From sequence record PP925821.1: DNA of 45,057 bases. The stretch is one strand, 5' to 3'. Position numbers and translations under genes: made by a program. The notes beneath the pieces were generated by a model. The model was not told the origin of the DNA. It saw only the letters and a program-made list of their open reading frames with translations, and made no database searches. Source of the DNA: Escherichia phage Eeyore. Shown here piece by piece: positions 22,810-23,023 of this stretch. Numbering within the stretch: the first letter of the stretch is position 1; every line of letters starts with the position of its first letter.

Positions 22810-22894
22810 TGCAGCATTCATCGAAAAAGCACATCAAATGCTATCGGTAATCATTATCATTTGATGGGTCCTCCCGGCGGGGTGGCCTACCACG

Positions 22895-22906
22895 GGGCGG
22901 CGCGCT
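22895..22906. other. Lambda-like cos site (putative 12-nt cohesive end, cosN)
   Basis: GGGCGGCGCGCT followed by CGCGGG, versus lambda GGGCGGCGACCT-CGCGGG (recalled); ~115 nt upstream of the small terminase gene. Confidence 0.65.
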
Positions 22907-23023
22907 CGCGGGAAACGGCTAGTTTTTCGAATCCAGGGTCATCATCATCATGTGCGCAGGTCTTTGATTTAATTAGAGGCCATTTTCGCAAGATGTCGAA
23001 TCGTTCAAAAAGTGTTCACCATC

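Follow-up and report, generated by a model that had tools for sequence, protein, structure and literature searches.

A predicted lambda-like cos site with an already published cohesive-end variant, upstream of a DUF1441-family small-terminase gene, in a lambdoid phage genome

The window, by which we mean the whole stretch of DNA analyzed (45,057 nucleotides), is a complete lambdoid phage genome. Its interval 22845-23026 is very probably the cos site, and a lambda-like motif within this interval marks the cosN core. The finding is correct, and the sequence is already known from both a GenBank annotation (phage LLS) and the literature.

A lambda-like cohesive-end motif in its cos context

The 18-mer GGGCGGCGCGCT-CGCGGG (GGGCGGCGCGCTCGCGGG) is located at 22895-22912 on the plus strand, inside the region 22880-22925 to which the earlier note had assigned it, and is present as a single copy in 45,057 bp; the 12-mer stands in the context ...GGGTCCTCCCGGCGGGGTGGCCTACCACG GGGCGGCGCGCT CGCGGGAAACGGCTAGTTTTTCG.... 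With up to three mismatches allowed, 0.10 matches to this 18-mer were expected in shuffles, and a search with the lambda 18-mer GGGCGGCGACCTCGCGGG returned this site only, with two mismatches (0.08 expected in shuffles at up to three mismatches). Identity to lambda amounts to 16 of 18 positions when the flank is included and 10 of 12 in the cohesive end itself, which is significant identity to the lambda end GGGCGGCGACCT, and the match is well beyond chance because the entire surrounding module is conserved. The substitutions are A to C at position 9 and C to G at position 10 of the 12-nt end. [quoted passage not shown] The features of the site and its surroundings are as follows.

21740-22276: lysozyme, lysis cassette upstream of cos
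22255-22809: DUF2514 spanin-like protein, lysis cassette upstream of cos
22845-22859 (region 22840-22859), no strand assigned: Fur-box-like palindrome cGGTAATCATTATCA, 6 bp upstream of cosQ
22866-22872, plus strand: cosQ-like heptamer GGGTCCT, identical to that of lambda at the same place and invariant in every related cos examined
22873-22894, plus strand: spacer from cosQ to the top-strand nick, CCCGGCGGGGTGGCCTACCACG, 22 nt, ending in the conserved CG
22895-22906, plus strand: predicted 12-nt 5' cohesive end (cosN core) GGGCGGCGCGCT, from the lambda match (10/12), the LLS record, and IMG/VR contig ends
22894/22895 (top strand) and 22906/22907 (bottom strand): predicted nicks
22907-22929, plus strand: conserved block CGCGGGAAACGGCTAGTTTTTCG, bp 13-35, adjoining the bottom-strand nick at the position of lambda I2; nearly invariant in 25 aligned sequences
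22940-22951, plus strand: CATCATCATCAT tract, (CAT)4, at mature-genome bp 46-57; no variation among the 25 aligned sequences
22957-22969, minus strand: possible IHF site, AATCAAAGACCTG on the bottom strand, matching 8 of the 9 specified positions of WATCAANNNNTTR
22992-23026, plus strand: conserved block GATGTCGAATCGTTCAAAAAGTGTTCACCATCATG, bp 98-132 (GATGTCGAAT...AGTGTTCACCATCATGG), running into the TerS start codon
23024-23512, plus strand: terminase small subunit (TerS), 162 aa, Pfam DUF1441 (PF07278, E=3.6e-41)
23512-25614, plus strand: terminase large subunit (TerL), 700 aa, gpA family (GpA_ATPase PF05876, E=1.6e-73; GpA_nuclease PF20454, E=1.5e-83)

Lambda-like phages have been defined by the Feiss laboratory as those with 12-base 5' extensions similar to lambda's; the left half of the end, the nick-flanking CG pairs, and the 7-bp cosQ, which is highly conserved among these phages, are the conserved parts of a lambda-like cos, and positions 7 to 12 of the end vary naturally without measurable effect on cos cleavage (PMC4669245). 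The window has the left half GGGCGG and CG dinucleotides at both nicks (..CACG/GGGCGG....../CGCG..), and these elements, together with cosQ and the spacer, are in register with lambda. GGGTCCT occurs once in the genome, counting both strands, compared with about four copies expected. In lambda, cosQ is the packaging-termination signal. From cosQ onward, the two sites read as follows.

Lambda: GGGTCCT; 23 nt, ending ACG; GGGCGGCGACCT; CGCGGGTTTTCGCTATTTATG after the nick
Window: GGGTCCT; 22 nt, ending ACG; GGGCGGCGCGCT; CGCGGGAAACGGCTAGTTTTT after the nick

The partial two-fold symmetry of cosN, which involves 10 of 16 bp in lambda (PMC9026076), is reduced but still present in the window (8 of 16 by direct reading) because the C10G substitution removes the G3:C10 pair.

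A hairpin in the spacer between cosQ and cosN (GGCAGG...CCTGCC in LLS and mEp043) was considered and rejected, its pairing being broken in the window and in many relatives with no compensating changes. In several deposited records (mEp043 PV340537, mEp460, PhiR55_1, and HannyBb), short genes labeled "hypothetical protein" run across cosQ and cosN; their counterpart in the window, an 87-aa open reading frame at 22861-23124 (plus strand), overlaps both cos and the TerS start and is most likely spurious. A promoter-like site was looked for in 22600-23200 and not found.

Terminase genes downstream of the site

Downstream of cos follow, in order, TerS, TerL, a head-tail adaptor, and a lambda-family portal. 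The motif had been placed about 115 nt upstream of a Nu1-like gene, and the distance is a fair approximation: the TerS ATG is at 23024, base 130 counted from the cohesive end, with a distance of 129 nt to the first base of that end and of 111 nt to the point where the 18-mer stops. The description of the gene as Nu1-like holds as an analogy and as a statement of remote homology, but not as family membership, which is DUF1441 rather than Phage_Nu1. TerS matches phrog_141, "terminase small subunit," at E=1.6e-67 and cross-matches phrog_57, the family of Nu1, at E=2e-11, and lambda Nu1 in turn cross-matches phrog_141 at 5.6e-8. An hhalign comparison of TerS and Nu1 alignments built from the fetched loci gave a probability of 88% (E=3e-6) over 127 columns, with the N-terminal helix-turn-helix (HTH) regions paired. 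BLASTP produced no alignment between TerS and Nu1, and TerS did not match Pfam Phage_Nu1 (PF07471), to which lambda Nu1 itself matches at 2.5e-100.

The gpA-family TerL just downstream of cos is what a lambda-like site would have. It aligns with lambda gpA over its full length (BLASTP, 24% identity over 624 aa, E=1e-17), carries a canonical Walker A motif (GPARTGKT), and has acidic nuclease motifs that align with TAGIDSQ, WDTGG, and NEALD of gpA. The proposal of lambda-type cos packaging is thus supported by cosQ, GGGCGG, the CG flanks, and a gpA-family TerL, all in lambda order and orientation. Sequence comparison of both subunits with PDB chains gave nothing usable, NCBIfam holds no model for either subunit, and a single-sequence AlphaFold model of TerS was poor (mean pLDDT 50).

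Further downstream, a single long open reading frame at 26988-29282 joins a head-maturation protease to a major-capsid region (phrog_133 and phrog_4523), the fused protease-coat organization known from Gifsy-2-like heads; its listed TTG start is probably too far upstream.

Ends of related records and contigs

The predicted 12-nt overhang geometry finds independent support in the ends of records and contigs of close relatives. The linear record of phage LLS (PQ299149.1) begins at the base equivalent to window 22895 and carries the feature "5' extended single-strand cohesive site GGGCGGCGCGCT." This end was inferred by its authors from terminase similarity and the putative mEp213 site (Vahanian et al. 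2017; Feiss, personal communication); the nanopore reads of LLS did not contain ends, and the gap was closed by PCR across cos (PMC12315714). Among the 99 IMG/VR stretches in which the exact 20-mer is present, always with like flanks, are two contigs from one metagenome (3300004808), which amount to one pair from one sample. Position 1 of IMGVR_UViG_3300004808_000008 is base 1 of GGGCGGCGCGCT, and the last base of IMGVR_UViG_3300004808_000009 is base 12 of the 12-mer (...CCACGGGGCGGCGCGCT). The former matches the packaging module (window 22895-25697) at 98.3% identity, and the latter matches the methylase and lysis region of the window. The chance of two contig ends falling on exactly these two bases is negligible, and the pair fits the footprint of 12-nt 5' overhangs filled by end repair, although polarity is not proved thereby.

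Two more distant records are cut at homologous places. That of phage cdtI starts at the homologous bp 1 (GGGCGGGAGCGT...) and ends ...CCACG, and that of Hafnia phage yong2 starts CGCGGGAAACGG and ends with its own 12-mer, GGGGCAGCGACA, which places the break at the homologous bottom-strand nick. Among metagenome contigs, the exact 20-mer gave 101 matches, of which about 54 are genuine cos sites and none lies at a contig end.

Alternative readings of the site

It is conceivable that the site is a true cos whose nicks are placed unlike those of lambda, with an overhang of 10 to 11 nt or one shifted by a base. Some room for this is left by the low identity of TerL to gpA (24%), by a cosQ-to-nick distance 1 bp below that of lambda, and by related sites with fewer bases between the conserved flanks. 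In VT1-Sakai and Stx2a phages, which are DUF1441 type, 10 to 11 bp separate CACG from CGCGG (GGGCGGGCGG(G)), reflecting either shorter cohesive ends or G-runs miscounted in assemblies. The Flotzy record (PP925827.1, around 6164-6190) reads GGGCGGCGC-CGCGGG, 3 nt short inside the end and hence 9 bp between CACG and CGCGG, with flanks 96 to 99% identical; the shortfall is probably due to a faulty assembly or consensus at the cos junction rather than to a genuine 9-nt end. Against these stand the contig pair, which ends at exactly bp 1 and bp 12 and shares 12 bp, the yong2 record, which ends with 12 nt before CGCGGG, and a distance of 12 bp between the CG flanks in all 10 IMG/VR copies as well as in LLS, mEp043, and Kp4865-4. 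We consequently consider displaced nicks very unlikely.

Two further readings would deny the motif a role altogether. It could be a nonfunctional relic or a chance GC-rich match, in a phage that is defective or starts packaging elsewhere, and chance matches are real enough in high-GC DNA: about half of the exact 20-mer matches in soil metagenomes have no cos context, and a looser pattern matched many Streptomyces genomes. In the window, however, the motif is part of a complete, conserved module with intact terminase genes right after it, the genome has one copy each of the motif and of cosQ, and relatives with the same module (LLS, mEp213, mEp043, and Flotzy) form plaques, so that a relic or coincidence seems extremely improbable. 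Headful (pac) packaging, which would make the lambda-like motif irrelevant, would sit poorly with a TerL that matches only gpA-type domains (both at E<1e-70), a lambda-family portal, and the discrete contig and record ends that relatives show at the site; TerL is thus not of P22, T4, or Sf6 type, nothing was found in favor of headful packaging, and we give this reading next to no weight. A functional lambda-like cos site cut at the predicted positions is the reading that we carry forward, on the expectation that this phage behaves like its relatives at cos.

The downstream region as a candidate cosB and a proposed packaging mechanism

Conservation between cosN and TerS was examined in an alignment of 25 distinct relatives, Hafnia phage yong2 included, and consists of conserved islands in an otherwise variable interval. 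The block that follows the bottom-strand nick is diagnostic of the DUF1441 type: at all 46 sites with a terminase match that carry a CGCGGGAAACGGCTAGTTTTTCG-type block, the gene that comes next is a DUF1441 TerS, never Nu1. The CAT tract is kept in all 54 genuine metagenome cos sites, and of 46 DUF1441-type cos sequences 36 carry CATCAYCA at bp 46-49, as against 0 of 48 of lambda type. In lambda, R3 extends over bp 50-65 (PMC9026076), and the CAT tract of the window occupies this position, which makes it a candidate recognition element for TerS.

The IHF-like match to the consensus WATCAANNNNTTR is weak, with an estimated 0.1 such matches expected by chance in the interval. The TTGAT core near bp 70-76 is nevertheless conserved across DUF1441-type cos sites and may be an IHF site. 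The distal GATGTCGAATCGTTCAAAAAGTGTTCACCATCATG block holds a second copy of CAYCATCATG and is kept even in yong2, whose TerS is only 66% identical; it could be a distal cosB, a translation signal, or both. The complex cosB of lambda, with the order R3-I1-R2-R1, an inverted R2, and an IHF site between R3 and R2, was not seen here: a repeat search, in which trinucleotide runs such as the CAT tract were ignored, found no direct or inverted repeats of 8 bp or more in 22840-23060. With no R repeats of lambda style, the cosB step of the mechanism is drawn from conservation only.

The analysis shows the anatomy of the site and its conservation, the gene families, and contig ends at bp 1 and bp 12 in a 98% identical relative. 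The steps of packaging can be proposed by transfer from lambda (PMC4669245, PMC9026076), with the protein-DNA contacts and the role of IHF inferred by homology. The DUF1441 small terminase would bind downstream of cosN, the likely element being the CAT tract at bp 46-57, possibly with the aid of IHF, and would then position the gpA-family large terminase on cosN. The large terminase would nick the top strand at 22894/22895 and the bottom strand at 22906/22907, and strand separation would leave 12-nt 5' overhangs, 5'-GGGCGGCGCGCT. Packaging would proceed rightward, so that the terminase genes enter the prohead first, and would end at the next cos on the concatemer, where cosQ (22866-22872) and cosN would both be needed.

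Comparison with known lambda-like systems

The cohesive end of the window is a variant in that it differs from lambda, as the earlier note had it, but it is not novel, because GGGCGGCGCGCT has been published as the inferred end of LLS and as the putative end of mEp213 (PMC12315714, citing Vahanian et al. 2017). In LLS (PQ299149.1) and mEp213/mEp043, the 12-mer is identical and cosQ and the spacer type are alike, the interval from cosN to TerS is 96 to 99% identical to that of the window, and TerS is about 99% identical; in LLS, mEp043, and Klebsiella phage Kp4865-4, the 12-mer and its flanks equal those of the window. The window has every feature of the LLS/mEp213-type cos, namely, the CGCGCT allele, the same flanks, and a TerS at least 87% identical that starts at bp 130. 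The relatives differ elsewhere, as LLS is without the Fur-box-like palindrome that the window has upstream of cosQ, and the window is a different mosaic genome, about half of whose early region differs from LLS and Flotzy.

The likeness to lambda extends to the order and orientation of cosQ, cosN, and terminase genes, to GGGTCCT, GGGCGG, and the CG flanks, to 10 of the 12 bases of the end, to the gpA-family TerL, and to a TerS remotely related to Nu1 with an N-terminal HTH. The differences at cosN are end positions 9 and 10, a spacer of 22 nt in the window versus 23 in lambda, and AAACGGCTAGTTTTT in place of TTTTCGCTATTTATG after the nick. At cosB, the (CAT)4 tract of the window contrasts with R3, R2, and R1 of lambda, and among the terminase genes the differences are the start of TerS (bp 130 versus 191), its family (DUF1441 versus Phage_Nu1), and the low identity of TerL (24%).

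Natural cosN variants have been reported in N15, which differs from lambda at positions 9 and 12, and in Gifsy-1, which differs at 8, 9, and 11 (PMC4669245). N15, phiD326, and Gifsy-1 have differences in the right half (bp 7-12) only, as does the window, although the actual substitutions differ, and N15 is further unlike the window in its Nu1-type TerS and single R site. Right-half variation of lambda-like ends is thus an established theme. Phages cdtI, mEp460, and phi458 and the Stx/VT1-Sakai prophages resemble the window in the 22-nt spacer, AAA(A/C)GGCTAGTTTTT, a CAT/CAC tract near bp 46-49, and a DUF1441 TerS, but differ in their right-half alleles (GAGCGT, GAGCGG, and others) and in a TerS that is 41 to 63% identical and starts at bp 187-206.

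Two types of cos site and a Fur-box-like palindrome

Variation across lambda-like cos sites was surveyed in IMG/VR with a pattern in which cosQ, the left half, and the CGCGG flank were fixed and positions 7 to 12 were free. The same kind of scan in genome contigs (GGGTCCT-N22/23-GGGCGG-N6-CGCGG) was too loose, with 105 of 120 rows being chance matches in high-GC genomes, many of them from Streptomyces. The IMG/VR sites fall into two types.

Lambda type (63 loci): spacer 23 nt; positions 7-12 CGACCT in nearly all; TTTTCGCTATTTATG after the nick; Nu1 homologue
DUF1441 type, that of the window (46 loci): spacer 22 nt, CCCGGYGGGGTGGCCTRCCACG; AAA(A/C)GGCTAGTTTTT after the nick; DUF1441 TerS
Alleles at positions 7-12 in the DUF1441 type, at least 12: GAGCGT 23, CGCGCT 10, GAGCGG 5, CGGACT 4, CTGGCT 3, CAGCGG 3

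Neither type was followed by a TerS of the other at any of these loci (63 Nu1 and 46 DUF1441), and the spacer length separates DUF1441-type sites (22 nt) from lambda-type sites (23 nt). The CGCGCT allele is always accompanied by a TerS that is 87 to 99% identical to that of the window and starts at bp 130.

A Fur-box-like palindrome lies beside cosQ in sites of both types. A match to TGATAATCATTATCA with no more than three mismatches was found 3 to 7 bp from cosQ in 31 of 46 lambda-type and 14 of 41 DUF1441-type unique upstream sequences, compared with 3 of 2,480 shuffles, and lambda has its own copy, TGATAATCATTATCA, upstream of cosQ at 48,44x-48,46x. Fur sites have been reported upstream of the Nu1 homologues nohA (at -233, by gel shift) and nohB in cryptic prophages of K-12 (Chen et al. 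2007, PMC2189734). LLS, a viable phage, has no such palindrome, so packaging does not depend on it, and it is an optional accessory of lambda-like cos modules. No mention of its fixed position next to cosQ was found in the literature examined.

It could be speculated that these patterns reflect two co-evolved cos architectures, a Nu1 type with a nearly invariant end and a DUF1441 type with at least 12 right-half alleles and perhaps a CAT-repeat cosB in place of R sites, and that the Fur box by cosQ is a working part of cos that could link the iron status of the host to late-operon read-through or packaging termination. Taken as a whole, we regard this proposal as unlikely. Neither the two-architecture pattern nor a role of the Fur box in cos was found described in the literature examined, and Vahanian et al. 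2017 may cover the first.

A few IMG/VR cos sites combine a DUF1441-type left side (22-nt spacer) with a lambda-type right side and a Nu1 TerS, for example, the spacer TCCGGTGGGGTGGCCTGCCACG followed by GTTTTCGCTATTTATG, which suggests recombination within cosN, the cohesive end being the point at which mosaic parts join. Similarly, many of the matches between the window and E. coli prophages start right at cosQ.

Genome-wide context and significance

The last and first bases of the window correspond to adjacent positions of one tail-fiber gene in E. coli CX07 (window 43616-45057 and 1-620), and no terminal overlap of the window was found; the window is therefore a complete, circularly permuted phage genome of 45,057 bp. 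It was opened arbitrarily, has a single cos, and is not a prophage with host flanks. As a mosaic relative of Flotzy, LLS, mEp213, and mEp043, it is identical to no deposited phage.

When the predicted cos site is placed into this context, it would fix the ends and orientation of the mature chromosome, with base 1 at window 22895 and a unit length of 45,057 bp. A packaging strategy is assigned along with them, a help in annotation and in the prediction of transduction behavior, cos phages being poor generalized transducers. The understanding of cos packaging is unchanged, as the variant lies at change-tolerant positions and its sequence is already in GenBank and the literature. Modest leads for work on packaging specificity come from the way in which cos architecture co-varies with TerS family, from the CAT tract, and from the Fur box by cosQ.

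The hexamer GCGCGC is overrepresented in the genome, with 49 copies compared with 29 +/- 6 expected from dinucleotide-preserving shuffles, none of which reached 49. Digestion with BssHII, whose site GCGCGC lies inside the overhang, was considered as a test of the ends and dropped, since a genome with 49 sites would give fragments of uninformative sizes. Chi sites (GCTGGTGG) have a strong orientation bias, with 19 on the plus strand versus 4 on the minus strand, and the 8.5 kb that immediately precede cos, at the right end of the mature chromosome, hold nine of those on the plus strand. An oriented Chi pattern has been described for LLS and other lambdoid phages without a recombination module (PMC12315714).
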